Part shown: piece after piece, positions 6,306 to 39,016 of the stretch
How the letters are laid out: each line of letters opens with the position of its first letter
Numbering within the stretch: position 1 is the first letter of the stretch
Source: Mustelus asterias
Taxonomy: Eukaryota
Assembly: GCF_964213995.1 (NCBI RefSeq)
Contig: NC_135805.1
Coordinates: 122,264,001-122,328,000, forward strand
Direction of reading: 5' to 3'
DNA length: 64,000 nt
Program-made: the position numbers and the translations under genes
Notes under the pieces: generated by a model
The model's database searches: none
What the model saw: the letters and a program-made list of their open reading frames with translations, nothing else
Told to the model about the DNA's origin: nothing

Positions 6306-6639
6306 AAATTTAAAAATCTTACTACAACTAATAAAGCTTTACAATTACAAATAAACTGCATGGAGCTAAATGAGCAAAATATTCACCAACAAATCGATTA
6401 CTCTGGAGCCACAGACTGGACTGGATTGGATAGCTCTTCTAGATGTTGCTGATTGTCTCCAGGTTCTCTTTTCATCCAAACCGCTAGGCATTGTTGAGTT
6501 CCTCCAGGTCCTCCTTTTGCCGGCTCTTGCAAAAGAATATATTGAACAAAATAAGCAAACTCAGAGGACAAAGTCCCTGGCCCTGATCGATTGCATACAT
6601 GTACTTTAGAAGAACTTAAGGAAGAGCATTAGTACTTCT

Positions 6640-8460
6640 AATTCATTAGAAAAGGGTACAATCCCAGAGGACTGGTGGATTGCTAACACAATTCCTATAT
6701 TTAAGAAGGGGAATAGAATATATCCAGTGAAATATAGACAAGTCAGTTTAACATCAATGTTAGGAAAAATGATGGAATCCTTGGCAAAAGAGAGAACATA
6801 AGAAATCTAGAAATGAAAAATATAATAATCAGTAGTCAGTGTGGATTTGAAAAGGGAAAATCTTACCTGATCAACCTTATTAATTTTTTTGGGGAGGTAA
6901 CAATGGTAATGTGGTAGATCCAATTGTCCGTATTTTCAAAAGGCCTTCAATTAGGTGGCTCATAATAGACTAACGAATAAGATCAAAGAATGTGGGGACA
7001 AGTGACAAAATGGATTGTTAGTTGGCTTCAAGACAGAAAGCAAAGATTATGTGTGTAAGGATCAGAAAGGCAGAATGTGCGTGTTCCACGATGATGGTGC
7101 TGGGACAATTGTTATTCAAAATTTGCTTTAGTGAGTTGGATATTGGAATCAAAAATACAATTTCTAAATTGGTGGATGGCTCTACATTGGGGTGGGGCAA
7201 CATAGTCAATACTGGAGAGGACTTCAATAAATGACAGGAGGACATTAACGAACTCTCAGAATGGATATATATTTGGAAAATAGCGCACAACACCGATAAC
7301 TGTGTGGTAACACATTTTTGATGGGAAGAATAGGGGGAGGGTTACTTATTATTTGGAAATGCAAGATTAAGTGGGGTAGAGAAACAAAGGGGATCTTGAT
7401 ACAAATACACCAATTAGTAAATGTTGTGCCACAGGTTGGCAACGTCTTAAAAATGCAAACCATGCACCAGACTACAAAAAGTCGTGAATGTCGCCCAATC
7501 CATCACGCAAACCAGCCTCCCATCCATTGACTCTGTCTACACTTCCCACTGCCTCGGCAAAGCAGCCAGCATAATTAAGGACCCTAAGCACCCCGGACAT
7601 TCTCTCTTCCACCTTATTCCTTCGGGAAAAAGATACAAAAGTCTGAGGTCACATACCAACCGACTCAAGAGCAGCAGCTTCCCTGCTGCTGTCAGACTTT
7701 TGAGTGGACTTACCTCGCATTAAGTTGATCTTTCTCTACACCCTAACTATGACTGTAACACCACATTCTCCACTCTCTCGATTCCTTCTCTATGAACGAT
7801 ATATTTTGTCTGTATAGCGCGCAAGAACAGTCGTTTTCTGTATGTTAATACATGTGATAATAAATCAAATCAAAAGACTTCATTTTAAGAAAGATAGAAC
7901 TGAAAAGTAGGGAAGATATGCTAAACCTGAATAAAAACATAGACCTCACTTGGAGTAGTGTGTGCCATTCTTGTTGCCATATAGAGGCAAAAGAGAGGGT
8001 AGAGAAAAGATTGACAAGGATGATACCAGAAATCCATGGCTATACATATCAGGAAAGCATTGACAGGCTGCACCTCTCCTCTCTTTAAATCGAAAACTGA
8101 GGATTGAGCTAAAGAGGTCTTTAAATTTCTGAAAGATTTTGATAGAGTAGATGCAGAGAAAATGTTTCTGCTTGAGGAAGATTATAACTAGAAGCTGTTA
8201 ATATAAGATAGTCACCAAGAAATCCAATAGGGAATTCAAGAGAAACTTCTTCACCCAAGTGGGTTGAAGTGAATAGTATAGATGCATTTGAGGGGGACCT
8301 AGACAGTGTCAGAGAGGGAAGAGAATTGAGGGCTATGGTGGTGAATTTAGGTGCAAAAAGATGGGAAGAGACTCAGGTGGAGCATAAACCCAGGCATGGA
8401 CTGGTTGGGCTACGTGGCCTGTTTCTCTGCTGTAAATCCTAGATAATCCTGTATAATCCT
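6640..8460 (+). mobile_element. Old degenerate CR1 LINE, interrupted by a Rex1 fragment
   Basis: Decayed IPEDW..AN..PIFKKG and KGKSYLINL motifs, and a CR1-like 3' UTR near 8395-8460. Confidence 0.8.
7470..7875 (+). mobile_element. Rex1/Babar-type LINE 3' fragment
   Basis: ORF 7484-7723 (AASIIKDPKHPGHSLF..LPSGKRY-like) and tail aataaatcaaatcaaa. Homologous to 63340-63740. Confidence 0.85.
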
Positions 8461-9116: not shown

Positions 9117-9549
9117 AGTAAGAAGTTTAACAACACCAGGTTAAAGTCCAACAGGTTTATTTGGTAGCAAAAGCCACACAAGCTTTCGGAGCTGCAAGCC
9201 CCTTCTGCAGGTGAGTGGGAATTCTGTTCACAAACAGAGCATATAAAGACACAGACTCAATTTACATGAATAATGGTTGGAATGCGAATACTTACAACTA
9301 ATTAAGTCTTTAAGAAACGACTGAGCAGAAACTGATAGCCAAGTTCCGCACACACGAGGACGGCCTCAACCGGGATATTGGGTTCATGTCCCACTATTTG
9401 TAACCCCCACAGAGTTTCACTGGCTGTCTTGTCTGGAGACAATACACATCTTTTTAGCCTGTCTTGATGCTCTCTCCACTCATGTTGTTTTGTTTCTTAA
9501 AGACTTGATTAGTTGTAAGTATTCGCATTCCAACCATTATTCATGTAAA
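9117..9549. mobile_element. Penelope-like element fragment with internal inversion
   Basis: 9117-9318 is the terminal repeat on the - strand. 9319-9549 on the + strand encodes EQKLIAKFRTHEDGLNRDIGFMSHYL*, the same GIY-YIG ORF end as at 24170-24260. Inverted arms at 9261-9318 and 9492-9549. Confidence 0.85.
9177..9213 (-). ncRNA. Minimal type-I hammerhead ribozyme motif (core mutated)
   Basis: Minus strand reads CAC-CUGCAGA-A-GGGGC-uugca-GCUCC-GAAA-GCUU-GUG. Stems I and II pair, but the core is CUGCAGA instead of CUGANGA. Confidence 0.65.
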
Positions 9550-13224: not shown

Positions 13225-14530
13225 AATTACAGCATGGAAACAGACCATTCGGCCCACTTGGTTTCCGCTGATGCTTATGCTCCATGTGAGCCTCTTGCTG
13301 CAGTAAGTCATCTAACCATATCTGCATCTCCCTCTATTCTTTTCTCCTCATTTACTTATCCAGTTTCCCCATGAAGGCATCAATGCTTTTCATCTCATCT
13401 ACTGTGTGGTAGCAAGTTTCACGTTTTAACTTTTACAAAAAAATCTACTGAATTGCTTCTTGGTTTCTGTGGCTATATTTCTGCCTATAACCACTAGATT
13501 TGAACGCACTCAGAATTGGAAACATCCCCTCTGCCTGCTGTTTCAAACCTCTTCCAAATTTTCAAGACCTCTTGTATATCATCCCTCTTTTCTAGAAGAA
13601 TGAATCCTACCTGTTCAGTCTTCACTGATGACTATAATCTCTCAGTCTAGCATCATCCTTACATCTTCACTAGTGCCTCTATATCCCTGTTGTAATGGTG
13701 AAGTTGGAACAATGCGCAATGTTCCACATGTGATCTGTGTAAGTTTAACATAACTTCTCTGCTTTTCAATGATCCTCCTCTGAGAGTGGTCTTCAGTGCT
13801 TTGTTTGCATTCGTTTGTCTTATTAAACTGCGTGCTGCTTTAAATACTCTGCGATTAACATCCCTAGTTTTTAGGGGCGGCACAGTGGTTAGCACTGCTG
13901 CCTTACAGCGCCAGGGAGCTAGGTTGGATTCCCGGCTTGGGTCACTGTCTGTGTGGAGTTTGCACGTTCTCCCCGTGTCTGTGTGGGTTTCCTCCGGGTG
14001 CTCCACGATTTCCTCCCACAGTCTGAAAGATGTGCTGGTTAAGTGCATTGACCCGAACAGGCGCCGGAGTGTGGCGACTAGGGGAATTTCACAGTCACTT
14101 CATTGAAATTTTAATGTAAGCTTTACTTGTGATCAATAAATAAATAAACTTTAAACTTTTCCCTGTACTCCTCTAATGCATTTAGACTCTTATTTTCCAA
14201 GGTATATGTGATCTCCTTATTCCTCTTGGCAAAACGCATCACCTCCCTTGTCAAAAACACTCGCTGCCTTCACCCTCAAATTTTGAAATTGTACGACCAA
14301 TTGTCAATTATAAATCATTGATATAAATGATAAATAGTGCTGGTCCCTGTGGACCACCACTTCTTACTGCAAGTTTGGGTAACTTCCTTTATAACCATAC
14401 TTTCTGCCTGTAGCCAACTGACCATTTATTCTGCTTCTTGCCCCATGACTGCACAATCTCTGATCTCATGAGTTTGTCTAAGGCTTTTTGAAATTCCAAG
14501 TTTATGACATTACTGCATCACCCTGCAATC
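13225..14530 (-). mobile_element. Old degenerate CR1 LINE containing a SINE
   Basis: Reverse-complement CR1 tail (cagcatggaaacagaccattcggccc) at ~13230. Minus-strand peptide LKSREVMLNL...HVEHCALF...HYNRDIEAL. Confidence 0.75.
13874..14158 (+). mobile_element. V-SINE with a non-CR1 tail
   Basis: HE1-like head and V-domain, but tail ggggaatttcacagtcacttcattg...taatgtaagctttacttgtga...aataaactttaaac. Same family as 56393-56675. Confidence 0.85.
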
Positions 14531-22275: not shown

Positions 22276-23922
22276 AGAATTTCCTGCTGGCATGATACAA
22301 CATCGGAAGGCCTGATAGAATGACTGTAGACAGATGTTTTAATGACTATTCATAATATGCAAATGGCATTCATGCCACCAGCCAGCAGGAAGATGGACTT
22401 GATATTGGGAAAATGTCAATGTGATTTTATGCTGGTGGGTTCCTGACACTAGATTCTTCACTCCCACCCACCATCAAACCTGCCACAGGCGGCATCAGAG
22501 AATTCCACCCATAGACGCAGTTATCAGCAATAAGGGGAATTAGAGTCCAATAAAAAAAAGGTAAAATAAATATTAATTTAATTGTTCTTTGATCAACTTT
22601 GAGGCATTGATTTTAAATGCTGCATAGAATTTGGATTAGCTGGTTCCTTGGATGCAGTCAGATATTAAAGATTGAGATCTCGGTTTGCTGGTAGGTCTCT
22701 GGTAGATTTGGCTTCTCAAACTGGCGGACACTCTCATGGGGGAGAGGGAGAGAGAGCAGCTCACAGCTTTGTTCCTCGGCTGCAGACTGATTTGACACCA
22801 CCTGTATCACTCACAATCTCTCTCCATTGGCTGAGCAGTCTTACCTTGAAATACTTCACCCACAGTGTATTTCTAAGAGGTTTTGGGTGCCTGTGGCAGC
22901 CATTGTTTCAATACCCAGTAATTTTCATTTTTAATATCTCCTCCTCAAACAGTTATGAGTTTTGATGGGTGTCTTGATTATAGGGAATGTCCCTCTTGCC
23001 ACACTCCCTTGAGGGTGATTTGTTTGTTTCTCACCTTCACCTTGGAATCTGACCTTGTATTTTTAAGCACTTTGCTTTGTCTCATTTCAAATTGCAAAAT
23101 TTCGAGTCAGTTGAAACTTGAAAAATCATACTTTCAAATGTAAAACGGCATAGCCACATTACAACAGTTTGAACTCACTTACCTGGATTCTCAGTTACCC
23201 AGGAAATGTTCCTCATCTAACTATATACCTGACCTCTTGCAATCGCTTACACTGGCCCCCATCCTGACCTCATAACCCCCTCATTCAACGCACAAGCACA
23301 CCCGGTCCCAACCTGACACCCTCCATCCCCGACTCTGCCTCCTTAACCCCAACTACCTCTCCACAAACTCCAGAATAGAATAAGGGAGAACCAATAGATG
23401 TTACTGTGGGAGGCGAGGGAAGAGATTGCCGAACCTCTGGCGATGATCTTTGCGTCGTCGATGGAGACAGGAGAGGTTCCGGAGGATTGCGGATGTGGTT
23501 CCTATATTCAAGAAAGGGAATAGAGATAGCCCAGGAAATTACTGACTGGTGAGTCTAACCTCAGTGGTTGGTAAGTTGGTGGAGAAGATCCTGAGGGACA
23601 GGATTTATGAACATTTAGAGAAGTTTAGTATGCTCAAAAGTAGTCAGCACGGCTTTGTCAAAGGCAAATCGTGCCTTACGAGCCTGGTGGAGTTCTTTGA
23701 AAATGTGACTAAACACATTGACGAAGGAAAAGCGGTAGATGTGGTTTACATGGACTTCAGCAAGGCGTTCGATAAGGTCCCCCATGCAAGACTTCTCGAG
23801 AAAGTGAGAGGGCATGGGATCAAAGGGGCTGTTGCCTTGTGGATCCAGAACTGGCTTGCCTGCAGAATAAGAAGTCTCACAACACCAGGTTAAAGTCCAA
23901 CAGGTTTATTTGGTAGCAAATA

Positions 23923-23959
23923 CCATAAGCTTTTGGAGCGCTGCCCCTTCGTCAGATGG
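23923..23959 (-). ncRNA. Minimal type-I hammerhead ribozyme motif (G12 mutated)
   Basis: CCAU-CUGACGA-A-GGGGC-agc-GCUCC-AAAA-GCUU-AUGG. Stem I is CCAU/AUGG and stem II is intact. The GAAA reads AAAA here, whereas other copies in the window have GAAA. Confidence 0.7.
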
Positions 23960-24169
23960 AGTGGACATCTGCTCTCAAACAGTGCAAACAGACACAGAAA
24001 TCAAGTTACAGAATACTAATTAGAATGCAAATCTCTACAGCCAGCCAGGTCTTAAAGGTACAGATAATGTGGGTGGAGGGAACATTAAACACAAGTTAAA
24101 GAGATGTGTATTGTCTCCAGACAGAACAGCTAGTGAGATTCTGCAAGATCAGGGGGAAAGCTGTGGGGG

Positions 24170-24721
24170 TTACTGATAATGTGACATAAATCCAACATCC
24201 CGGTTTAGGCCATCCTCATGTGTGCGGAACTTGGCTATCAGTTTCTGCTCAGCGACTCTGCGCTGTCATGTGTCGTGAAGGCCGCCTTGGAGAACGCTTA
24301 CCTGAAGATCCAAGGCTGAATGCCCGTGACTGCTGAAGTGCTCCCCCACAGGAAGAGGACAGTCTTGCCTGGTGATTGTCGAGCGATGTTCATTCATCCA
24401 TTGTCGTAGCGTCTGCATGGTTTCCCCAATGTACCATGCCTCGGGACATCCTTTCCTGCAGCGTATCAGGTAGACAACGTTGGCCGCGTTGCAAGAGTAG
24501 GTACCATGTACCTGGTAGATGGTGTTTTCATGTGAGATGATGGCATCCGTGTCGATGATCCGGCATGTCTTGCAGAGGTTGCTGTGGCAGGGTTGTGTGG
24601 TGTCATGGTCACTGTTCTCCTGAAGGCTGGGTAGTTTGCTGCGGACAATGGTCTGTTTGAGGTTGCATGGTTGTTTGAAGGCAAGAAGTAGGGGTGTGGG
24701 GATGGCCTTGGCGAGATGTTC
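24170..24721 (-). pseudogene. Penelope GIY-YIG endonuclease domain (one internal TGA at 24266-24268)
   Basis: Manual translation: ...QPCHSNLCKTC...YSCNAANVVYLIRCRKGCPEAWYIGETMQTLRQWMNEH...VGEHF...AEQKLIAKFRTHEDGLNRD. Confidence 0.9.
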
Positions 24722-25795
24722 GTCTTTTTTGCCTGCAGAAGGCAGAGAGTGGTTATAGATGGGTCTTTTTCTGAATGGAGGTCGGTCACCAGTGGAGTTC
24801 CCCAGGGATCTGTTCTGGGACCCTTACTGTTTGTCATTTTCATAAATGACCTGGTTGAGAAAGTGGAGGGATGGGTTGGTAAGTTTGCCGACGACACGAA
24901 GGTTGGTGGTGTTGTGGATAGTTTGGAGGGATGTCAGAAGCTGCAGCGTGATATAGATAGGATGCGAGACTGGGCGGAGAAGTGGCAGATGGACTTCAAC
25001 CCGGATAAATGTGTAGTGGTCCATTTTGCAGGTCAAATGGGATGAAGGAGTATAATATCAAGGGTAAGACTCTTAGCAGTGTAGAGGATCAGAAGGACCT
25101 TGGGGTCCAGGCCCATAGGACTCTTAAATCGGCCTTGCAGGTAGAGGAGGTGGTTAAGAAGGCGTATGGTGTGCTGGCCTTCATCAATCCAGGGATTGAG
25201 TTTCGGAGTCGGGAGATAATGATGCAACTTTATAAGACCCTCGTCAGACCCCACTTAGAGTACTGTGCTCAGTTCTGGTCGCCTCATTACAGGAGGGATG
25301 TGGAAATTATTGAAAGGGTGCAGAGAAGATTTACAAGGATGTTCCCTGGATTGGTTGGCATGCCTTATGAGGATAGGTTGAGGGAGCTCGGTCTTTTCTC
25401 CTTGGAGAGACAAAGGATGAGAGGTGACCTGATAGAGGTGTACAAGATGTTGAGAGGTATAGATCAGGTGGATTCTCGGAAGCTTTTTCCCAGGGCTGAA
25501 ATGTCTGCTATGAGAGGACACAGGTTTAAGCTGCTGGGGAGTAGGTACAGAGGAGATGTCAGGGGTAAGTTTTTCACTCAGAGGGTGGTGGGTGAATGGA
25601 ATCGGCTGCCGTCAGTGGTGGTGGAGGCAAACTCGATAGGGTCTTTTAAGAGACTTCTGGATGAGTACATGGAACTTAATAGGATTGAGGGTTATAGGTA
25701 AGCCTATATATAAGCCTAGGTAGGTAGGGACATGACTGGCGCAACTTGTGGGCCGAAGGGCCTGTTTGTGCTGTATTTTTTCTATGTCCTATGTG

Positions 25796-26790
25796 ATGTA
25801 TTTGGATTTTAAGAAGGTTTTCAATAAGGTCCCACACAGGAGGTTAATAAACATAGATATAACATATGGGATGGATGGGGCAGAAAACAGTCGGAATAAG
25901 TGGGTCATTCTCAGGTTGGCAGGATGTGACTAGTGGGACACAAGAAGAATCGATACTTGGGACCCCAGCTGCTCGCAATCTGTATCAATAAGTTGGATGT
26001 GCGGACAAAATGTAATATTTCCAAGTTTGCATATGGCACAAAACTAGGTGGGAATGTACATTGTGAGGAAGATGAAAAGAGGCTTCAAGGGGATTTGAAC
26101 AGACTTAGTGCACGGACGAGAACTTGGCAGATGGAATATAATGTGGATAAGTGTGAGGTTATCTATTCTGATAGGTGAAATGGAGGCGCAGAGTATTTCT
26201 TAAATGGCAAGAGCTTGGGAAGTGTCGATGTCCAAAGGGACCCTGGTGTCTTTTTTTCATAAGTCACTGAAAGCTAACATGCAGATGCAGCAAACAATTA
26301 GGATGAAAATGGTATGTTTTCCTTTTTAACAAGATGAATTGAGCACTGGAGTAAAGATGGTTTGCTTCAATTATATAGAACATTGATTAAACTGTACCTG
26401 GAGTATTGTGCACAGTTTTGGTCCCCCTATCTAAGGAAGGATATATTTACCAAGGAGGTAATGGAAGTTCACCAGGCTTATTCCTGGGATGGCAGGACTG
26501 TCCCATGAGGAGAGATTGAGGAGCCTGTGTCTGTATTCTCTCAAGTTTATTCGAAGGTGAGGTGATGTAATGTAATTGAAACTTACAGATGGAGTTAGAC
26601 AGGGTAGATGCAGAAAGGCTATTGCAGTCTCAGATTAAGGGGTAGGAATCTTTGGAATTCTCTACCCCAGTCTGTTGTGGAAGTTCTATCATTGAGTCTG
26701 TTCAAGACAGAGATTGATAAATTCATAGCTGCCAACGACATCAAGGGATATTGTGGGAAAAATAGTGTTGTGGTAGACGATAGGCTATGA
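25796..26790 (+). mobile_element. Old degenerate CR1 LINE (host of younger copies)
   Basis: MYLDFKKVFNKVPHRRL and LQGDLNRLS..WQMEYNVDKCEV. Continues the GEPIDV stub at ~23385, and the tail resumes at ~27690-27750. Confidence 0.8.
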
Positions 26791-26792
26791 TC

Positions 26793-27680
26793 GTCTGCAG
26801 CGTGACATAGATAGGATGCAAGACTGGGCGGAGAAGTGGCAGATGGATAAACCATCAGATAAGCTGCAGAGCTGGGCTGAGAGGTGGCAAATGGAGTTTA
26901 ATGCGGAAAAGTGTGAGGTGATTCACTTTGGAAGGAGTAACAGGAATACAGAGTACTGGGCTAATGGTAAGATACTTGGTAGTGTGGATGAACAGAGGGA
27001 TCTGGGTGTCCATGTGCATAGATCCCTGAAAGTTGGCACCCAGGTTGATAGGGTTGTTAAGAAGGTGTACGGTGTGTTAGCTTTTATTGGTAGAGGGATT
27101 GAGTTTCGGAGCCAGGAGGTCATGCTGCAACTGTACAAAACTCTGGTGCGGCCACATTTGGAGTATTGCGTACAGTTCTGGTCGCCACATTATAGGAAAG
27201 ATGTGGAAGTGTTGGAAAGGGTGCAGAGAAGATTTACCAGGATGTTGCCTGGTATAGTGGGAAGATCATATGAGGAAAGGCTAAGGGACTTGAGGTTGTT
27301 TTCGTTAGAGAGAAGAAGGTTAAGAGGTGACTTAATAGAGGCATACAAGATGATCAGAGGATTAGATAGGGTGGATAGTGAGAGCCTTTTTCCTCGGATG
27401 TTGATGGCTAACACGAGGGGACATAGCTTTAAATTGAGGGGTGAGAGATATAGGACAGATGTTAGATGTAGGTTCTTTACTCAGAGAGTAGTAAGGGCGT
27501 GGAATGCCCTGCCTGCAGCAGTGGTGGACTCGTCAACATTAAGAGCATTCAAAAGGTTATTGGATAAACATATGGATGATATTGGAATAGTGTAGATTAG
27601 AGGGGCTTTAGATTGGTCCCACTGGTTGGTGCAACATCGAGGGCCGAAGGGCCTGTACTGCGCTGTTATGTTCTATATTC
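26793..27680 (+). mobile_element. CR1 LINE (subfamily A) with a chimeric 5' end
   Basis: ORF 26816-27595, highly similar to 1950-2770. Flanked by CTATGATC at 26785-26792 and 27680-27687. Confidence 0.92.
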
Positions 27681-27749
27681 TATGATCTATCTAATTGAAT
27701 GGTGGAATAGGGTTGAATGGCCACCTTCTGCTCGAGTACTCCTATGTTC

Positions 27750-28130
27750 TCACCCAATCCCCTACCAGACTCTCACTACTTGTTGACCTGATCTGAGCCC
27801 ACCACTTAATTCCTCGCCCGTACCACTCAATTCACCTCCTGATGCAACCAGATCCCCACCACCTGATTCTTCCCTGGCCTCCAGACCCACATCTACTTGA
27901 CCTGACTATCCCCCACCATCTGACTCCACCCCATCTGATTAGCCACCTTCCTCCACCCACCGATGTGATCTGATTAGTCCCCCACCTGACCAGACTACCC
28001 CTCTGACCCACCTAACCAATGCACCTGCTATCCTTTCCATCTTAACCACCTCAACCACCTGCCACCATCCCTGTGACCTACTCGATCCCTTCATCCATCC
28101 TGCCCTGTTAACCACCCTGCCTCCTTATAC
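27750..28130. repeat. C-rich low-complexity tract
   Basis: Repeated ccacc/cacctg(a) units with strong strand asymmetry. Similar tract at ~23225-23370. Confidence 0.55.
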
Positions 28131-28377
28131 ATTTACCTATTTTTCTTAGCTTTCCAAATAAGCTTCAGGACATTAAAATTCTTAACTTATCGGTATATGG
28201 CAGCTAATGCCATTAAAAGGGGACATGGCTTCAGACCGTCCAGCGACATGAAGAAGCAGCTCTGTAGGTATGCTCCACATTTCTGGAGAAGCCAAAATTG
28301 AAAGTCCCGACCAGAAAGGGGCACAGAAAAGTAAGAGTGGAGATGCAACCTGAGGGAGATCGACACTGTTTGGAGGA

Positions 28378-28708
28378 TCATAGAATCATAGAAACCCTAC
28401 AGCCATTTGGCCCATCGAGTCTGCACCGACCACAATCCCACCCAGGCCCTACCCCCATATCCCTACACATTTACCCACTAATCCCTCTAACCTACACATC
28501 TCAGGACACTAAGGGGTAATTTTAGCATAGCCAATCAACCTAACCTGCACATTTTTGGACTGTGGGAGGAAACTGGAGCACCCGGAGGAAACCCACGCAC
28601 ACACGAGGAGAATGTGCAAACTCCACACAGACAGTGACCCAAGCCGAGAATCGAACGCGGGTCCCTGGAACTGTGAAGCAGCAGTGATAACCACTGTGCT
28701 ACCGTGCC
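28378..28708 (-). mobile_element. HE1-type V-SINE
   Basis: Reverse-complement head (ccactgtgctaccgtgcc), V-domain and tail (tcatagaatcatagaa). Confidence 0.9.
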
Positions 28709-28967
28709 GGATTAGGATTAGGGCCATTGTGTCCAAAAAAACCCCGAATGATCTTTGGATCAAATTCATGCTATTCAAATTAGAGCAATTTATGTGGCCA
28801 GAAAAGCTTGGGGATTTGGTGATTGGCCAATCATCTGAAGTTGACATATTTTCACAGGGCAGTTCAATTCTGCAGCAACAATTTTATTTTCAGCTATAAG
28901 TTGCCAGCGCAGACTTCACCCTGTTGGTTTACCCAACAGAGAGTCTTTACCATGTATTTTTTTAGAC

Positions 28968-29105
28968 TTGGATTTATATAGGATTCATAACCATTGGAAG
29001 TCTCAAAGCCATTTACAGCCAATATGTATTTTTGTTTGAAGTGTCGTCAGTACTGTATGTCAGAAATGTAACAGCCAATTTTACGCACAATTGATACTGC
29101 ACAGA
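28968..29105 (-). mobile_element. Old Deu-domain SINE 3' fragment
   Basis: Reverse complement resembles 49110-49230 (gtgcacaaattggctg...aaagctttgg). Confidence 0.55.
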
Positions 29106-29146
29106 TAAACCACCGCACACCTATGTCCATGGTAAATTTATATGTA

Positions 29147-29339
29147 TGATGTGGAGATGCCGGCGTTGGACTGGGGTGAACACAGTAAGAGTTTTAACAA
29201 CACGAGGTTAAAGTCCAACAAGTTTATTTGGTAGCAAATACCATTAGCTTTCGGAGCGGGAGCAGCACTCCGAAAGCTAATGGCATTTGCTACCAAATAA
29301 ACCTGTTGGATTTTAACCTGGTGTTGTTAAAACTCTTAC
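29147..29339. mobile_element. Penelope terminal-repeat palindrome with 14-bp TSD
   Basis: Arms 29184-29256 and 29268-29340. TSD TAAATTTATATGTA at 29133-29146 and 29340-29353. Confidence 0.88.
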
Positions 29340-30922
29340 TAAATTTATATGTACCCAGCGATAAGCAGCTGGTTATTCTGAGCTTCAGCCAGCACTCTGC
29401 CTGCAGGGTGGTCAAGTAAGTTGGTGTACATTTTGTAGAATTTGGTCAGTTAGATGGAATTGCAACCTGACTAAAAGTTTTTGCTGTCAAGCACAGGATG
29501 TGCTGACCAAAGACACATTTGTGCTCAGGAACCTAATATTCCTCCAATTTCCTAGGAATCAGCTTCTAATATTAGACCTAAGGGCAGCCACCTTGCTCGG
29601 CTATTTTAGAGCTCTTTGATTTAATCAGGTGATGATGGCCTCAGCAATAACCTTGTCCTGTTTACTTTGTGTAGACAGGGTATTAGCATGAGATCTTTGA
29701 TGTTAAGGCACAAGATCAACAAGGTCCAGGTAAAGATTTTACTCTAGGAAATTCCTCTTTCAAGTCATAACCACCCAGGACTGATGGGGGAAGGGTGGAA
29801 GCTGCTGTTCAGGGCAAATAGGACCAAAGGGAATGTGATAATTGAAATGCTTGCAATTTGCGTTCTTTGCTCGTTATATCCAGGCACCAACAATAACTCT
29901 ATCATCCATTATATCAGCAAGCAGGAGTTGATTTGTTTCCAACTAATAAGTCCAGGAAAAATTAAACCTAAACTCAGCTGCACCTGGCAACATGAGAGAA
30001 TTGATCTGTGCAATGATCTCACATGTTGGACAAGAGAGAATTCCTAAACTGGTCTGCTGGGCACCACTGATATGAATCAGGGAAGTTGTGGTCACTAGTT
30101 TGACTGCATTTAGACTGGCCAGTAGTTTGTCCTGGGGAAAGAGGGTCAAATAAGAGGAAAGTTAGGCATGGGTTGAAAGCACCCGCTGTTTTAATGAGAC
30201 TCGAGTATAGCATGCCTGCCCCCATCTGACCACACACAAAGATAACTTATCAAACTGATCTACTTGTTTTTTTCCACAACTTCTTTAAGTGCTGCAGTTT
30301 AGGTTTCTGTCAAGCCTGAACAATTAGTTGAATCTTGTGTAATGCAAGCTCTAATGAGTCTTACATTTCCCAGAGTTGGTTGTTAAAACTCATTTCAATA
30401 TTGCATATTTCAGGCAGTGTCGTGGTTGCCTTACAAAAATACCTTGACGGATTTAGCAGTGGTCCAGATAAATCAGATGTGTGGACTGTCGATCTGCTTA
30501 ATTTGTCATTGTTGTACTTGTCTTACACTCGGGGATTTAGAATTTAAGCCTCAATGTGACCAACCAGAGGAATATCTTTCTTGGACCTTGACTTGGTAGA
30601 AGTGAGCAACTCTAGAAAGTCTCAAGAAAATTCTGCAATTGAAGGTTGACCTGTTGCATCCTCAGGAAATCTTTAGCATTGTTCCTAAAAAAGGAGACAG
30701 CTCCATGTAGACGTCTTTGAAGTCCCTGTCTGTGTTCCCTCCTATTCCCTGCTCACCTAGTTAGCACAGAATATGCATGTGGTAGAACTCATTCTGAGCA
30801 CTCTGCACTGGCTCCATCAGCAACATTTGGTGGTTTGTGGCAATGAGCAGAAGCAGTATTTCACAATTCTGAAAGGTTATCTGATTCAGCATCCAGAATT
30901 CTTTTGATTGACAGCATGTTTA

Positions 30923-32228
30923 GACCATTTAGAAAGATGCGGATTAATCCGGGATAGTCAGCACGGATTCGTGAAGGGCAAGTCGTGCCTCACAAATTTG
31001 ATTGAATTTTTTGAGGAGGTAACTAAGTGTGTTGATGAAGGTAGGGCAGTTGATGTCATATACATGGATTTTAGTAAGGCGTTTGATAAGGTCCTCCATG
31101 GTCGGCTTATGATGAAAGTGAGGAGGTGTGGGATAGAGGGAAGTTGGCCGATTGGATAGGTAACTGGCTGTCTGATCGAAGACAGAGGGTGGTGGTGGAT
31201 GGAAAATTTTCGGATTGGAGGCAGGTTGCTAGCGGAGTGCCACAGGGATCAGTGCTTGGTCCTCTGCTCTTTGTGATTTTTATTAATGATTTAGAGGAGT
31301 GGGCTGAAGGGTGGATCAGTAAATTTGCTGATGACACCAAGATTGGTGGAGTAGTGGATGAGGTGGAGGGTTGTTGTAGGCTGCAAAGAGACATAGATAG
31401 GATGCAAAGCTGGGCTGAAAAATGGCAAATGGAGTTTAACCCTGATAAATGTGAGGTGATTCATTTTGGTAGGACTAATTTAAATGTGGATTACAGGGTC
31501 AAAGGTAGGGTTCTGAAGACTGTGGAGGAACAGAGAGACCTTGGGGTCCATATCCACAGATCTCTAAAGGTTGCCACTCAAGTGAATAGAGCTGTGAAGA
31601 AGGCCTATAGTGTGTTAGCTTTTATTAACAGGGGGTTGGAGTTTAAGAGCCATGGGGTTATGCTGCAACTGTACAGGACCTTGGTGAGACCACATTTGGA
31701 ATATTGTGTGCAGTTCTGGTCACCTCACTGTAAGAAGGATGTGGAAGCGCTGGAAAGAGTGCAGAGGAGATTTACCAGGATGCTGCCTGGTTTGGAGGGT
31801 AGGTCTTATGAGGAAAGGTTGAGGGAGCTAGGGCTGTTCTCTCTGGAGCGGAGGAGGCTGAGGGGAGACTTAATAGAGGTTTATAAAATGATGAAGGGGA
31901 TAGATAGAGTGAACGTTCAAAGACTATTTCCTCGGGTGGATGGAGCTATTACAAGGGGGCATAACTATAGGGTTCATGGTGGGAGATATAGGAAGGATAT
32001 CAGAGGTAGGTTCTTTACGCAGAGAGTGATTGGGGTGTGAAATGGACTGCCTGCAGTGATAGTGGAGTCAGACACTTTAGGAACATTTAAGCGGTTATTG
32101 GATAGGCACATGGAGCACACCAGAATGATAGGGAGTGGGATAGCTTGATCTTGGTTTCAGATAAAGCTCGGCACAACATTGTGGGCCGAAGGGCCTGTTC
32201 TCTGCTGTACTGTTCTATGTTCTATGTT
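30923..32228 (+). mobile_element. 5'-truncated CR1 LINE (subfamily B)
   Basis: ORFs 30908-31159 and 31126-32040 (one frameshift), FADDTK motif, tail tgttctatgttctatg. Flanking ATGTTTA duplication. Confidence 0.94.
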
Positions 32229-32471
32229 TATATTGAGCACCAACAAGTGTGGAGGGAATCTATTTAAAGCTAATAATAGAGTCAGCAATCTTTTTCAATG
32301 TTTCATTCATATTCATTCATTTGTATAGAACTGTGAATCCTACTGTATGGCACAGTAAACATTGTAAATGTTCATAATACTTTCATCTGTCATGTGTAGA
32401 TGAGAGCACGTGTAGCCAGCACAATGTTCTCGTTCTTTTTAATGATCAGATTTCAAAGGAAAAATGAAAGG

Positions 32472-32615
32472 GTTGCTTTTATATAGCACATTTCATAGCC
32501 CCAGGATGTCTCAAAAGGACCAATTAGGCATCTTTGTCGAGATGTAATGATCGTTGTAGAGAATGTGGCGGCCAGTTTGTGCACAAGAAATTCTGATGTG
32601 CAATAATAACCTGAT
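32472..32615 (-). mobile_element. Old Deu-domain SINE 3' fragment
   Basis: ttgcttttatatagcacatttcat...aatgtggcggccagtttgtgcacaag is the reverse complement of the tail seen at 49110-49230. Confidence 0.55.
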
Positions 32616-32619
32616 CATA

Positions 32620-33945
32620 CTCAGCATGGCTTTGTCAAAGGCCGATCGTGCCTTACGAGCCTGGTGAAGTTCTTTGAAAATGTGACTAAACACATTGACG
32701 AAGGGAAAGCGGTAGATGTGGTTTATATGGATTTTAGCAAGGTGTTCGATAAGGTCCCCCATGCAAGGCTTGTAGAAAAAGTGAGAGGCCATGGGATCCA
32801 AGGGGCTGCTGCCCTGTGGATCCAGAACTGGCTTGCCCAAAGGACAGTAAGAAGTCTCACAACACCAGGTTAAAGTCCAACAGGTTTATTTGGCGCATCT
32901 CCACATCTTGCCCAAAGGAGACAGAGAGTGGGTATAGATAGGTCTTTTTCTAAATGGAGGTCGGTCACCAGTGATGTGCCTCAGGGATCTGTTCTGGGAC
33001 CCTTGCTGTTTGTCATTTTCATAAATGACCTGGATGAGGAAGTGGAAGGATGGGTTGGTAAGTTTGCCGATGACACGAAGGTTAGTGGGGTTGTGGATAG
33101 TCTGGAGGGATGTCAGAAGTTACAGAGGGACATAGATAGGATGCAAGACTGGGTGGAGAAGTGGCAGATGGACTTCAACCCAGATAAATGCGTAGTGGTC
33201 CATTTTGGCAGGTCAAATGGGATGAAGGAGTACAATATAAAGGGAAAGACTCTTAGTACTGTGGAGGATCAGAAGGACCTTGGGGTCCAGGTCCATAGGA
33301 CTCTAAAATTGGCCCCGCAGGTGGAGGAGGTGGTTAAGAAGGCGTATGGTGTGCTGGCCTTTATCAATCGAGGGATTGAGTTTTGGAGTCCAGGAATAAT
33401 GATGCAGCTATATAAGACCCTCGTCAGACCCCACTTGGAGTACTGTGCTCAGTTCTGGTCACCTCATTACAGGAAGGATGTGGAAAAGATTGAAAGGGTG
33501 CAGAGGAGATTTACAAGGATGTTGCCTGGATTGAGTGGCATGCCTTATGAGGATAGGCTGCGGGAGCTCGGTCTTTTCTCCTTGGAGAGACGTAGGATGA
33601 GAGGAGACCTAATAGAGGTATATAAGATGTTGAGAGGCATAGATCGGGTGGACTCGCAGAGGCTTTTTCCCAGGGTGGAAATGGCTGCTACGAGAGGACA
33701 CAGGTTTAAGGTGCTGGGGGGTAGGTACAGGGGAAATGTTAGGGGTAAGTTTTTCACACACGGTGGTGGGCGAGTGGAATCGGCTGCCGTCAGTGATGTT
33801 GGAGGCAAACTCAATAGGGTCTTTTAAGAGACTCCCGGATGAGTACATGGGACTTAATAGGATGGAGGGTTATAGGTAGGCCTAAAAGGTAGGGATATGT
33901 TCAGCACAACTTGTGGGGCCGAAGGGCCTGTTTTGTGCTGTCGTT
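32620..33945 (+). mobile_element. CR1 LINE (subfamily C-like) with a small Penelope insertion
   Basis: ORFs 32664-32873 and 32928-33827. CR1 tail at ~33915-33945. Confidence 0.93.
32845..32906 (-). mobile_element. 62-bp Penelope terminal fragment with 13-bp TSD
   Basis: TSD CTTGCCCAAAGGA at 32832-32844 and 32907-32919. The insert matches 23868-23913 plus an inverted terminus gcatctccacat (compare atgtggagatgc at 29149). Confidence 0.88.
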
Positions 33946-34467
33946 TTAATGATGTATGGAATAAATATTGGCTCGGACATGATATACAACTGTAGAGTAT
34001 GTACTTGAGTCTCTGTGACAGATGAGCAGGAAATAGGAGGGAACTCAGACAGGGGCTTCAAAGTCTTCTACATGGTGCTGTCTCCTATTTTAGGAACAAT
34101 GCTAAAGATTCCCTGAGGATGCAACAGTCAATCTTCAACTGCAGAATTTTCTTTTAATCAACCTTTCACTTGTGATAATTGAGACTTTGCCCTGGAGTTG
34201 CTCACTTCTACCAAGTCAAGGATTTCTACTGAAATCAAAAGTAATGCCATTGAGTTATGATTGACACTTTATTATATTCAACTATTACTGAGTTTTAGGA
34301 AACATGGTATGAACTGTAGGAAGGGGAAGGATGACAAAAACAGTATGGTATACATGATTCACAAAATGCCATTCTGTTACGAACTATGTTCATCTGTCTG
34401 TCTTTAAAAATAATAGCCAATGCACAAATTACTTTAGCCTTTTGATCCATATTATTTTTGAAAAATC

Positions 34468-35648: not shown

Positions 35649-38600
35649 TCACCCCTCCTTTGAAAACAAAGGCCGGCGGGGTACAAAACACAGAACAATT
35701 GTCCACTTGTCTATAAGTTCAAGCGGTCTGGGGGACCGCACCGTCGTTGTGACCTCTAACACCGGCGATGACACCGGTTCAGGCAATCGCGGTGGCGTTC
35801 TCTCCAAGGCGATGTCCAGCGACGACTCCAGTGCCTCACAGGCCGGTAGACCCCGAGGTGGTGACAATCCACTGAACTCGGGCACGCCTTGAAGTGGCGA
35901 CCATCTCCTGGACTCAGGCAAGCTGTACACGGGAGTAAGAGGGTTAAGTGGTGGTCCCGACACTGTCCGCGCCGTGTCAGGAGGGAAAATAATGGTTGGG
36001 GGGTCCCTAACAGTAGGTGTGGGAGCGACAGGGGTTTCCAAGCCTCCTGCTGGCGCCAGATCTCGAATCGAGACCGTGTCCTCTCGCCCGTCAGGATATG
36101 CCTCGTAGGCATACTGAGGGTTGGCGTGGAGGAGATGGACCTGTTCAACCAAAGGGTCGGACTTGCGGGTCCTAACATGTCGCCGCAGGAGGACAGGTCC
36201 TGAGTACGTCAACCAAGACGGTAATGAGGTCCCAGAGGAAGACTTCCTAGGGAATGAAAACATTCTCTCATGAGGAGTAGCGTTGGTTGCCGTACACAGG
36301 AGTGAGCGTATGGAGTGGAGCGCATCAGGGAGTACCTCTTGCCAACGGGAGACTGGAAGACCTTTAGACTTCAACGCCAGTAAGACAGCCTTCCAGACTG
36401 TAGCATTCTCTCGTTCGACCTGTCCGTTACCCCATGGGTTGTAGCTCGTGGTTCTACTAGAGGCAATCCCATATGAGAGCAGGTATTGTCTCAAGTCATC
36501 GCTCATGAACGACGAGCCCCTATCGCTGTGGATGTAACAGGGGTAACCGAACAGGGTGAAAAGATCACGAAATGCGTTGATAACCGTGGCAGCGGTCATA
36601 TTAGAACAGGGAATGACAAAAGGGAATCGTGAGTACTCATCAACCACATTGAGGAAGTACACGTTCCGATCTGTTGAGGGAAGGGGGCCCTTAAAGTCCA
36701 CACTCAGTCTTTCGAAGGGACGAGTGGTCTTAACGAGTTATGCCCTGTCAGGTCGGTAGAAGTGCGGTTTGCATTCCGCGCATACCTGACAGCTTCTGGT
36801 TATGGACCTGACATCCTCCACCGAGTAGGGTAGATTCCGGGCTTTTACGAAGTGGTAGAGCCGAGTGACCCCCGGATGGCAGAGGTCATTGTGGAGAGCC
36901 TGCAATCGATTCTCCTGCATACTCGCGCATGTTCCACGCGACAGGGCATCCGAGGGCTCGTTGAGCTTCCCTGGACGATACATGATATCATAATTGTAGG
37001 TGGAGAGTTCGATTCTCCACCTCAAGATCTTATCGTTCTTGATCTTACCCCGTAATGTGTTGTTGAACATGAACGCCACGGACCGCTGGTCCGTGAGCAG
37101 AGTGAACCGTTTGCCCGCCAAGTAATGGCACCAATGCCGAACGGCCTCCACAATGGCCTGGGCCTCCTTTTCCACTGCCGAATGTCGAATTTCAGGGCCT
37201 TGGAGGGTGCGAGAGAAAAAGGCGACGGGCCTGCCCGCCTGGTTAAGTGTGGCGGCCAGGGTGAAATCCGATGCATCACTCTCCACCTGGAAGGGGATGG
37301 ACTCGTCGATAGCATGCATCGTGGCTTTCGCGATGTCGGCTTTTATTCTTGCAAAAGCTAAGCGAGCCTCTGTTGCTAGGGGAAAAGAGGTAGACTTGAT
37401 GAGCGGACGGGCTTTGTCCGCGTAATTGGGAACCCACTGTGCGTAGTATGAGAAGAAGCCTAAGCATCTTCTCAGTGCTTTGACGCTAGTGGGCAGAGGA
37501 AGTTCGAGGAGAGGACGCATACGGTCTGGATCAGGGCCAAGGACCCCGTTTTCCACCACGTATCCGAGGATAGCTAGGCAGCGCGTGTGAAATACACACT
37601 TCTCCCTGTTGTAGGTCAGATTCAGGCGAGATGCAGTGCGTAAGAATCTAAGAAGGTTGGCATCGTGGTCCTGCTGGTCATGGCCGCAGATGGTGACGTT
37701 ATCCAGGTATGGGAAGGTAGCCCGCAGCCCGTTCTGGTCCACCATTCGGTCCATAGCACGCTGGAAGACCGAGACCCCATTCGTGACACCAAAAGGAACC
37801 CTTAAAAAATGGTACAGGCGACCATCCGCCTCAAAGGCCGTGTATTGTCGGTCGTCTGGGCGAATGGGGAGTTGGTGGTAAGCAGATTTTAAGTCGATGG
37901 TGGAGAACACCCGGTACTGCGCAATCTGGTTGACCATGTCAGATATGCGCGGGAGGGGATACGCATCCAGCTGCGTGTATCTGTTGATGGTCTGACTATA
38001 GTCTATGACCATCCGGGGTTTGTTCCCATTCTTAACCACCACGACTTGCGCTCTCCAGGGACTAGCGCTAGGTTGGATGATCCCTTCCTTGAGGAGCCGC
38101 TGAACTTCAGATCGAATGAAGATCCGATCTTCAGCGCTGTAATGCCTGCTCTTTGTTGCGATGGGCTTGCAGCCTGGCACGAGATTCTGGAATAGGGAGG
38201 GTGTGGTAATCCTAAGCGTTGAGAGAATACATGTGGAGCGCGTTGGGCAATTTAGAGGCTGCGGGTCTCCCACTGAAAGCGGAGGGAGTGGCCCACCGTA
38301 CTGCAGGGTTACACTCTTCAAGTGGACCATAAAATCTAGTCCTAGGAGTATTGGCGCGCAAAGGTGCGGTAACACGAGGAGCTTGAAGTTCTCGTAGACT
38401 GTGTCCTGCACCGTCAGATTTACCACGCAACTCCCTAGCACGGTGACAGACCGGAACCTTGATGCCATCGAAATTGTCTGCTTGACAGTCTGAATCTGGA
38501 GCCCACACCGCTTCACGGTGTCAGGGTGAATGAAGCTCTCCGTGCTCCCGCTGTCAAACAAACAATAAATCGGGCGTTTGTTTACCTGTATGTCCATCAT

Positions 38601-38651
38601 GGACTTGTCGAGTCTGTGAGGCTTGGCCTGGTCCAGGATGATCGACGCCAC
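35649..38651 (-). pseudogene. Gypsy pol (protease, RT, RNase H, integrase) with one in-frame stop at 36738-36740
   Basis: LFDSGS protease, YLDN RT, DASD RNase H, HHCC zinc finger (H..LCH...C..C), integrase VDFKGP / HSDRGSSF / NGQVER. The two ORFs are in the same frame. Confidence 0.95.
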
Positions 38652-38688
38652 CGTTGGTTCGTGGGCGCAACTGCAGGCAGCTGAGATG

Positions 38689-39016
38689 TCATAGAATCCC
38701 TACAGTGCAGAAGGAGGCCATTCGGCCCATCGAGTCTGCACCGACCACAATCCCACCCAGGCCCTACCCCCACATAGTTACCCGCTAATCCCTCTAACCT
38801 ACGCATCTCAGGGACAATTTTTAACCTGGCCAATCAACCTACCCCGCACATCTTTGGACTGTGGGAGGAAACCGGAGCACCCGGAGGAAACCCACGCAGA
38901 CACGAGGAGAATGTGCAAACTCCACACAGACAGTGACCCGAGACGGGAATCGAACCCGGGACCCTGGAGCTATGAAGCAGCAGTGCTAACCACTGTGCTA
39001 CCGTGCCGCCCGTTGA
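38689..39016 (-). mobile_element. HE1-type V-SINE inserted in the Gypsy gag-pol linker
   Basis: TSD TGAGATG at 38682-38688 and 39017-39023. Removing the insert restores the frame ...QQGSSSTISAACSCAHEPTVASIILDQ. Confidence 0.92.

Follow-up and report, generated by a model that had tools for sequence, protein, structure and literature searches.

A short spaced palindrome as the likely cause of a Penelope-like retroelement insertion hotspot in a CR1-type LINE of Mustelus asterias

The window analysed here, the whole 64-kb stretch of Mustelus asterias contig NC_135805.1 from position 122,264,001 to 122,328,000, holds two copies of a long interspersed nuclear element (LINE) that are interrupted by Penelope-like retroelement sequence directly behind the codons for WIQNWLA. 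The host LINE, delimited with a profile built from the genome's own copies, is what we take to be CR1, a name that comes from an earlier sequence-only reading of this DNA; a reverse transcriptase (RT) domain was confirmed and APE-like text was noted by eye. Both interruptions, each with its own target duplication and with inserts of 861 and 62 bp, were described in that reading, and the letters agree. The first host copy is 5'-truncated, interrupted in its RT region and located at 23400-25794 on the plus strand. A left half-signal, CTG at the Asn/Trp codon junction (23851-23853), stands 2 nt outside the left copy of the target duplication, TTGCCTGCAGAA (23856-23867). It is followed by insert 1, an 861-bp 5'-truncated Penelope-like copy on the minus strand (23868-24728, recognised by translation) that carries a cysteine motif and a GIY-YIG region at about 24170-24727, with one in-frame stop (24263-24265), and then a terminal repeat ending without a tail. 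The right copy of TTGCCTGCAGAA (24729-24740) and a right half-signal CAG, a Gln codon (24743-24745), close the site, whose exact sequence occurs empty 6,775 times in the genome. The second host, likewise 5'-truncated and on the plus strand (32608-33958; Pfam RVT_1 with E 2e-12 on 32919-33500), is arranged in the same order: CTG (32828-32830), the duplication CTTGCCCAAAGGA (32832-32844; 12 nt plus a C common to the tail end), the 62-bp insert 2 (32845-32906), the second copy of CTTGCCCAAAGGA (32907-32919) and CAG (32922-32924). Insert 2 is two-ended, with a tail-less left end and, at its right, a tail in the opposite sense reading GCATCTCCACATC (32895-32907), so that the common orientation earlier ascribed to the two inserts holds for their left ends only. 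Upstream of the site the two hosts agree at 205 of 227 bases and, once emptied, both sites read CTG-N16-CAG; the half-signals were placed from the sequence, with motif and geometry taken from insertion sites outside CR1.

Element ends were mapped to the CR1 site throughout the 3.68-Gb genome. Exact matches to the 31-nt end with the aagtctcac variant number 65,665, beside 80,112 for the gttt(t)aac variants. A tail-less end lies at most 6 nt behind the CR1 left anchor in 975 cases of the aagtctcac variant and in 877 cases of the others (1.5% and 1.1% of the ends, a 1.36-fold difference), and the gap letters in 200 listed junction rows are mostly the element's own, so the junction falls at or beside one base. 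Downstream by about 65 nt, a control anchor that captures 40 of 83 copies gave a single match in a 15-base window. An observation of 975 junctions against 1 at the control is far beyond chance, and the hotspot at one CR1 position is real and strong. Events were also sampled by element ends only, from the first places on contig C1 and mostly from its first 60 Mb, with an event assigned to CR1 if a profile match lay at most 10 nt from the junction; thirty loci (L071-L100) picked for the CR1 site were excluded from all share estimates. The site took 20 of 217 events (about 9%, 95% interval 6-14%; 8/95, 7/98 and 5/28 before merging) and 2 of 20 full-length copies, an enrichment of about 1,340-fold over uniform insertion (820-2,060). 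The strict junction pattern matches only 4 of 21 sampled site ends, which reconciles the 1.3% of ends found genome-wide with the 7-9% of events in the samples. Empty CR1 sites were matched 82,275 times by a pattern that catches 14 of 43 examined copies, hence about 250,000 copies (165,000-410,000) span the site; as a rough estimate, some 10,000 insertions occupy it, i.e. 4-5% of the spanning copies. Each of the 21 site insertions for which both ends could be recovered has its own host and length; among them are 14 host 12-mers and both orientations. The independence claimed for the two insertions in the window is upheld, each duplication matching its own host.

The sequence around the insertions was then read outside CR1. 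A duplication of at least 10 nt was found in 90 of 194 events (mode 12), 67 of them outside CR1, and the remaining 104 events were dropped. At the 67 non-CR1 sites, CTG-N16-CAG was present in 18 (0.2 in shifted windows), the looser MTG-N16-CAK in 29 (0.5) and NTG-N16-CAN in 43 (2.0); 17 was the second-commonest spacing of the palindrome, and the edges of the duplication lay 2 nt inside the signals at 19 and 18 of 31 sites. By eye, no microsatellite insertion bias was seen among the reconstructed sites, which were all complex sequence. The motif amounts to about 9 bits in two 3-nt half-signals, as against about 3 bits in realigned controls. From the full-length copies, kept out of training (20 copies, of which 7 gave no end pair), 10 of the 13 paired ones sit on TG-N16-CA and 2 more on the N17 form; 3 of the 13 are in CR1. 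Four matrices trained without the 23 CR1 sites (the realigned one also dropped 4 of the 67 non-CR1 sites as redundant) all rank the hotspot first of about 2,940 CR1 positions. Their predicted enrichments, 311 with three core columns, 1,661 with columns 7-13, and 4,212 and 9,615 with all columns, bracket the observed value of about 1,340. The unrealigned 21-site matrix at positions 7-13, which gives the 1,661-fold figure, predicts that the site takes 26% of CR1 events, where 20 of 60 were observed; for the other 39 CR1 events that could be scored, the predicted percentile has a median of 0.88. Within CR1, the right CAG is intact at 17 of 17 filled sites but at 30 of 42 empty ones (p 0.013). In the listed sites the signal is spelled out by Asn-Trp and Gln-Arg codons, and a presumed constraint on these would account for its persistence from one CR1 subfamily to the next.

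The inserted element is, to judge by its motif and layout, a Neptune-like Penelope retroelement with intact 893-aa copies; the CX2-5CxxC motif used for this placement is common to Neptune and Nematis (PMC8557442, in the text available). Many of the 150 listed protein-search matches carry open frames of 912-913 aa, as do 20 of 20 matches retrieved (counted from the first Met, the 913-aa frames give 893 aa), and 16 frames of equal length are 99.3-99.8% identical. The closest named proteins among the matches listed are from sharks, at 81-94% identity; turtles, sea urchins and ticks have relatives as well. Pfam RVT_1 is above cut-off on the element's open reading frame (ORF), and the protein model (predicted local distance difference test, pLDDT, 92) retrieved telomerases in 10 of the first 11 Foldseek rows. 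A C-terminal GIY-YIG region in the same ORF has the YIGET motif and two inner cysteines; Pfam PF01541 gave no match on the full ORF or on the window fragment, reached E 3.6e-4, just under cut-off, on one further locus (L007), and is carried by many homologues. Upstream of the endonuclease lies a CX4CxxC motif, CHSNLCKTC in insert 1, and a motif of the CX2-5CxxC form is present in 100 of the 101 homologues with a YIG motif (120 homologues listed). Pseudo-long terminal repeats, inverted copies and an optional 30-40 nt tail overlapping the ORF start were found from the ends, the layout of one locus (L235) and the paired ends, and the ends are bimodal: of 152, 73 coincide with the tail and about 70 lie some 30-38 nt further into the element. 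The terminal repeat of insert 1 has a CTGACGA core followed by CAAAA; no hammerhead fold was seen in it and Rfam had no match. Insert 1 and a full-length copy are 93% identical in the ORF part and 76% in the terminal repeat, and terminal repeats thus diverge or get swapped faster than the ORF. The intact full-length copies (L232-L251) have the gtttaac end variant wherever it was read.

Of the 123 events in samples that were not selected for tails, 57 are two-ended inserts, the largest class, and in all 57 (L001-L070, L181-L210) the paired ends are one with a tail and one without, never two alike. On the top strand the element's 3' end is joined to the right edge of the duplication, on the bottom strand to its left edge. 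By target-primed logic, each nick would then fall 2 nt to the 5' side of a CAG, and the overhangs would be 3' and 12 nt long. The protein would probably act as a dimer whose two GIY-YIG domains nick opposite strands. Reverse transcription could then be primed by one of the 3' ends or by both, beginning at either of two points on the RNA (with or without the tail), and the choice would yield single copies, facing one way or the other, or a two-ended insert such as insert 2. For residues 1-330, a homodimer model made without an alignment of our own scored 0.49 against 0.01 for the best control, with an antiparallel helix interface at about residues 42-80, agreement between runs in at least 31% of contacts and pLDDT of at least 61. 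Among solved homodimers, 21 of 30 microbial and 17 of 29 eukaryotic ones came up to the same mark (animals 7/16; 1/7 for those lacking an older solved relative); of the single chains, 0 of 23 and 0 of 30 did. The model passes and supports a dimer, short of showing one.

Over the whole length of CR1, no preference for it was seen: it received 60 of 217 events (28%, interval 22-34%) and, without the site, 40 of 197 (20%), and it makes up 22% of the 166,773 bases lying more than 1.2 kb from any element. Further recurrent positions in the CR1 profile are about 1480 (8 events), 1790 (2), 1925 (4) and 2365 (6), and a short interspersed nuclear element (SINE)-like repeat has 271 junctions at one place, a raw count taken without an empty-site count or control. 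At three loci (L022, C1:1279526-1282556; L042; L160), independent insertions are clustered in single CR1-rich stretches, each at a different hotspot.

We put at roughly 0.85 the probability that the element inserts genome-wide between (C)TG and CA(G) set 16, sometimes 17, bases apart, duplicating about 12 bases, with the CR1 codons as the best match, which likely explains the hotspot. CR1 would then be the carrier of one near-ideal site multiplied about 250,000 times, a position collecting some 7-9% of insertions while CR1 itself goes unrecognised. A sequence-preferring endonuclease, as proposed in the sequence-only reading, is the likely cause. That reading went on to suggest a Penelope subfamily which cuts CR1 as a safe harbour and disables the LINE. 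An endonuclease or subfamily evolved for this RT stretch, with all other insertions off-target, would fit the share of about 9% at one position, the rank of the site above every other position of the CR1 profile, the threefold excess per copy that is left over and the 1.36-fold more frequent use of the site by the aagtctcac variant; repeat-targeting retroelements are moreover known (PMC4640811, in the part available). We nevertheless hold it very improbable, with 197 of 217 events elsewhere, CR1 as a whole not enriched, a motif that carries no more than about 9 bits (realigned controls, about 3), and further hotspots in CR1 and in the SINE-like repeat. The variant aagtctcacaac common to both inserts does differ from the gttt(t)aacaac outside CR1 in the window, but it marks no targeting subfamily: the other end variants give 877 junctions from 80,112 ends beside 975 from 65,665, and subfamily-specific targeting is rejected, the CR1 site being used by all of them. 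Nor is CR1 supported as the target itself, 157 of 217 sampled events lying outside it on the same spaced palindrome and the SINE-like repeat having a hotspot of its own. The safe-harbour proposal is not supported, CR1 minus the site taking no more than its share of the nearby DNA, and the disabling of the LINE fares no better: the estimated occupancy is a few percent, and most CR1 copies are 5'-truncated anyway, as the coverage profile indicates.

The remaining alternatives concern how the events arise. Insertion between the same signals could also proceed by two sequential nicks of one molecule, i.e. a nick, reverse transcription and a second nick at a fixed distance. The measured duplications range over 10-16 nt, one strong half-signal with a weaker partner is often enough, and homing GIY-YIG enzymes are described as monomeric nickases (PMC8557442, in the text available), all of which would suit this scheme. 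The signal is symmetric, half-signal strength showing no difference between the side primed with the tail and the one without (77 events, p 0.68), two-ended inserts outnumber every other class and the N-terminal dimer model passes; we therefore regard sequential nicking as possible, if unlikely. Copying of a single CR1-Penelope composite is suggested by recurring junction bases, as in L042 and L238, which have both junctions in common. Those two inserts measure about 0.3 and 3.6 kb, and the differing hosts, lengths and orientations of the site insertions refute amplification of a composite for the sample, leaving it a negligible chance. Insertions into repeats are generally expected to be harmless, and on that ground random insertion with selection merely sparing such copies might be proposed. 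To selection, one base of a dead LINE is indistinguishable from a base 65 nt away, so that the single-position peak refutes this explanation too; the lack of enrichment in CR1 overall also speaks against it, and we give it practically no weight. A more speculative extension of the paired-nick scheme would have the preference tuned to codons that CR1 cannot easily change, with a dimer making a concerted 12-nt staggered break, RNA copied from both ends, and an arms race in which subfamilies differ in exposure through synonymous escape; this we consider improbable.

Several observations weigh against a short genome-wide signal as the whole explanation. Per copy, the CR1 site is about threefold (1.9-4.6) more occupied than the average CTG-N16-CAG elsewhere; the fuller matrices cover this excess but overshoot (4,212- and 9,615-fold), so that the fit depends on the columns chosen. 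The left C is dispensable in CR1, CTG being found at 11 of 16 filled and 25 of 42 empty sites (p 0.56). The subfamily with TTCTTGACAGAA accounts for 21 of 200 listed junctions over 4,099 empties (about 4.7%) and that of the insert-1 host for 2 of 200 over 6,775 (about 0.3%), both by hand tally in the same single junction class; this gap of about 17-fold between two CR1 subfamilies is contrary to what the matrices predict, and age, DNA shape or longer-range contacts may lie behind it. TG-N16-CA is missing from 24 of the 67 non-CR1 sites, the motif rests on under half of the events (90/194), and the samples are small and drawn mostly from that one 60-Mb stretch. The dimer model stops short of the endonuclease, and the cutting geometry is read from sequence. 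In a separate hand tally, sites ending AGGA made up 32 of 100 listed empties and 7 of 100 listed aagtctcac fills.

For Penelope-like elements, the layout of insertions, the tail and the activity on both strands have been described before (PMC8557442, PMC3846280, PMC11167929). As described in the available text of the first two sources, Neptune-clade elements resemble the present one in having a single ORF with RT and C-terminal GIY-YIG, CX2-5CxxC upstream of the endonuclease, pseudo-long terminal repeats, inverted copies, a one-sided 30-40 nt tail and target duplications; they differ in that duplication length is variable and insertion biased to microsatellites, whereas here about 12 bp are duplicated within a spaced palindrome. 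PAc, a Poseidon element of Anolis carolinensis (PMC11167929), likewise has two reverse-transcription start points that define the tail; it cut and extended both strands in vitro, and its modelled dimer is joined by a head-to-tail helix near the N-terminus. Its clade, Penelope/Poseidon, has no cysteine linker, unlike the present element with its CX4CxxC, and PAc preferred AT-rich DNA and 5'-ATT-3' in vitro; the available text of that paper reports neither a spaced palindrome nor a fixed stagger. Nested hotspots in human repeats (Levy, Schwartz and Ast, PMC2836564, in the sections available) similarly arise within a repeat from the integration motif of the inserting element, and complementary signals flank the duplications of hAT, ERV1 and MaLR. 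Those symmetric motifs belong to transposase or integrase elements, while here a target-primed retroelement shows a wider spacing. Recurrent insertion at one base of a multicopy sequence is also known from R2, Tx1, R1, NeSL and Utopia (PMC4640811) and from Chlamys elements targeting ribosomal DNA (PMC8557442), and transposons are among the known targets of target-specific retroelements (PMC4640811). By the accessible account, such elements have most copies in their target (less strongly so in some Utopia families); here about 9% are, with 20 of 217 events at the one site, and the rest follow a short genome-wide motif. Instead of the long target-specific recognition sequence of the R2, Tx1 or R1 type, we found about 9 bits in two 3-nt half-signals that were learned outside CR1. 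The GIY-YIG homing endonucleases I-TevI and I-BmoI also prefer a short motif at the cut (CNNNG and NNNNG) but add a long one-sided binding site (PMC12774661, in the part available); the present target consists instead of two short half-signals in facing orientation, 16 bases apart. In the literature, subscription papers, Repbase and supplements aside, we found no paper describing a palindromic Penelope target with near-fixed duplication or a Penelope hotspot in CR1, and the available portions of PMC12910113 and PMC12602865 contain nothing on target choice.

Elsewhere in the window the CR1 profile has 25 matches in all, one of them (25791-26753) directly behind the first host. Two other CR1 copies on the plus strand, placed in the sequence-only reading at about 1730 and 31180 and described there as empty, are indeed so; their homologous sites read TTG-N16-CAG (1719-1740) and CTG-N16-CAG (31164-31185). 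The pieces at 6566-7459, 14271-14524 and 25791-26753 also span the site coordinates, with a site state unreadable by the pattern used. Outside CR1, a two-ended Penelope copy of the gttttaac variant (29148-29340) has a 14-nt duplication within ATG-N17-CAG, and a copy of the gtttaac variant lies on the minus strand at 9117-9549, its duplication not recovered. The family of SINE-like repeats bearing the second hotspot is represented at 28500-28710. At about 35650-38700 the minus strand has two long open frames, of 653 and 362 aa, which by eye resemble the protease-RT and the integrase of a long terminal repeat retrotransposon.

Target choice and cutting by Penelope-like elements are poorly known, the in vitro study having found an AT-rich preference only (PMC11167929, in its available text). 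With a symmetric signal and a fixed stagger, the geometry becomes concrete and testable, and priming of one break from both ends would explain the two-ended inserts together with the one-sided tail. The near-identical intact 893-aa copies offer a ready enzyme, and the more than 100,000 genomic ends a specificity table. The findings do not establish an element that hunts LINEs; rather, a short motif can mimic the targeting of one element by another, and this matters for the reading of nested insertions and for the dating of repeats by nesting.

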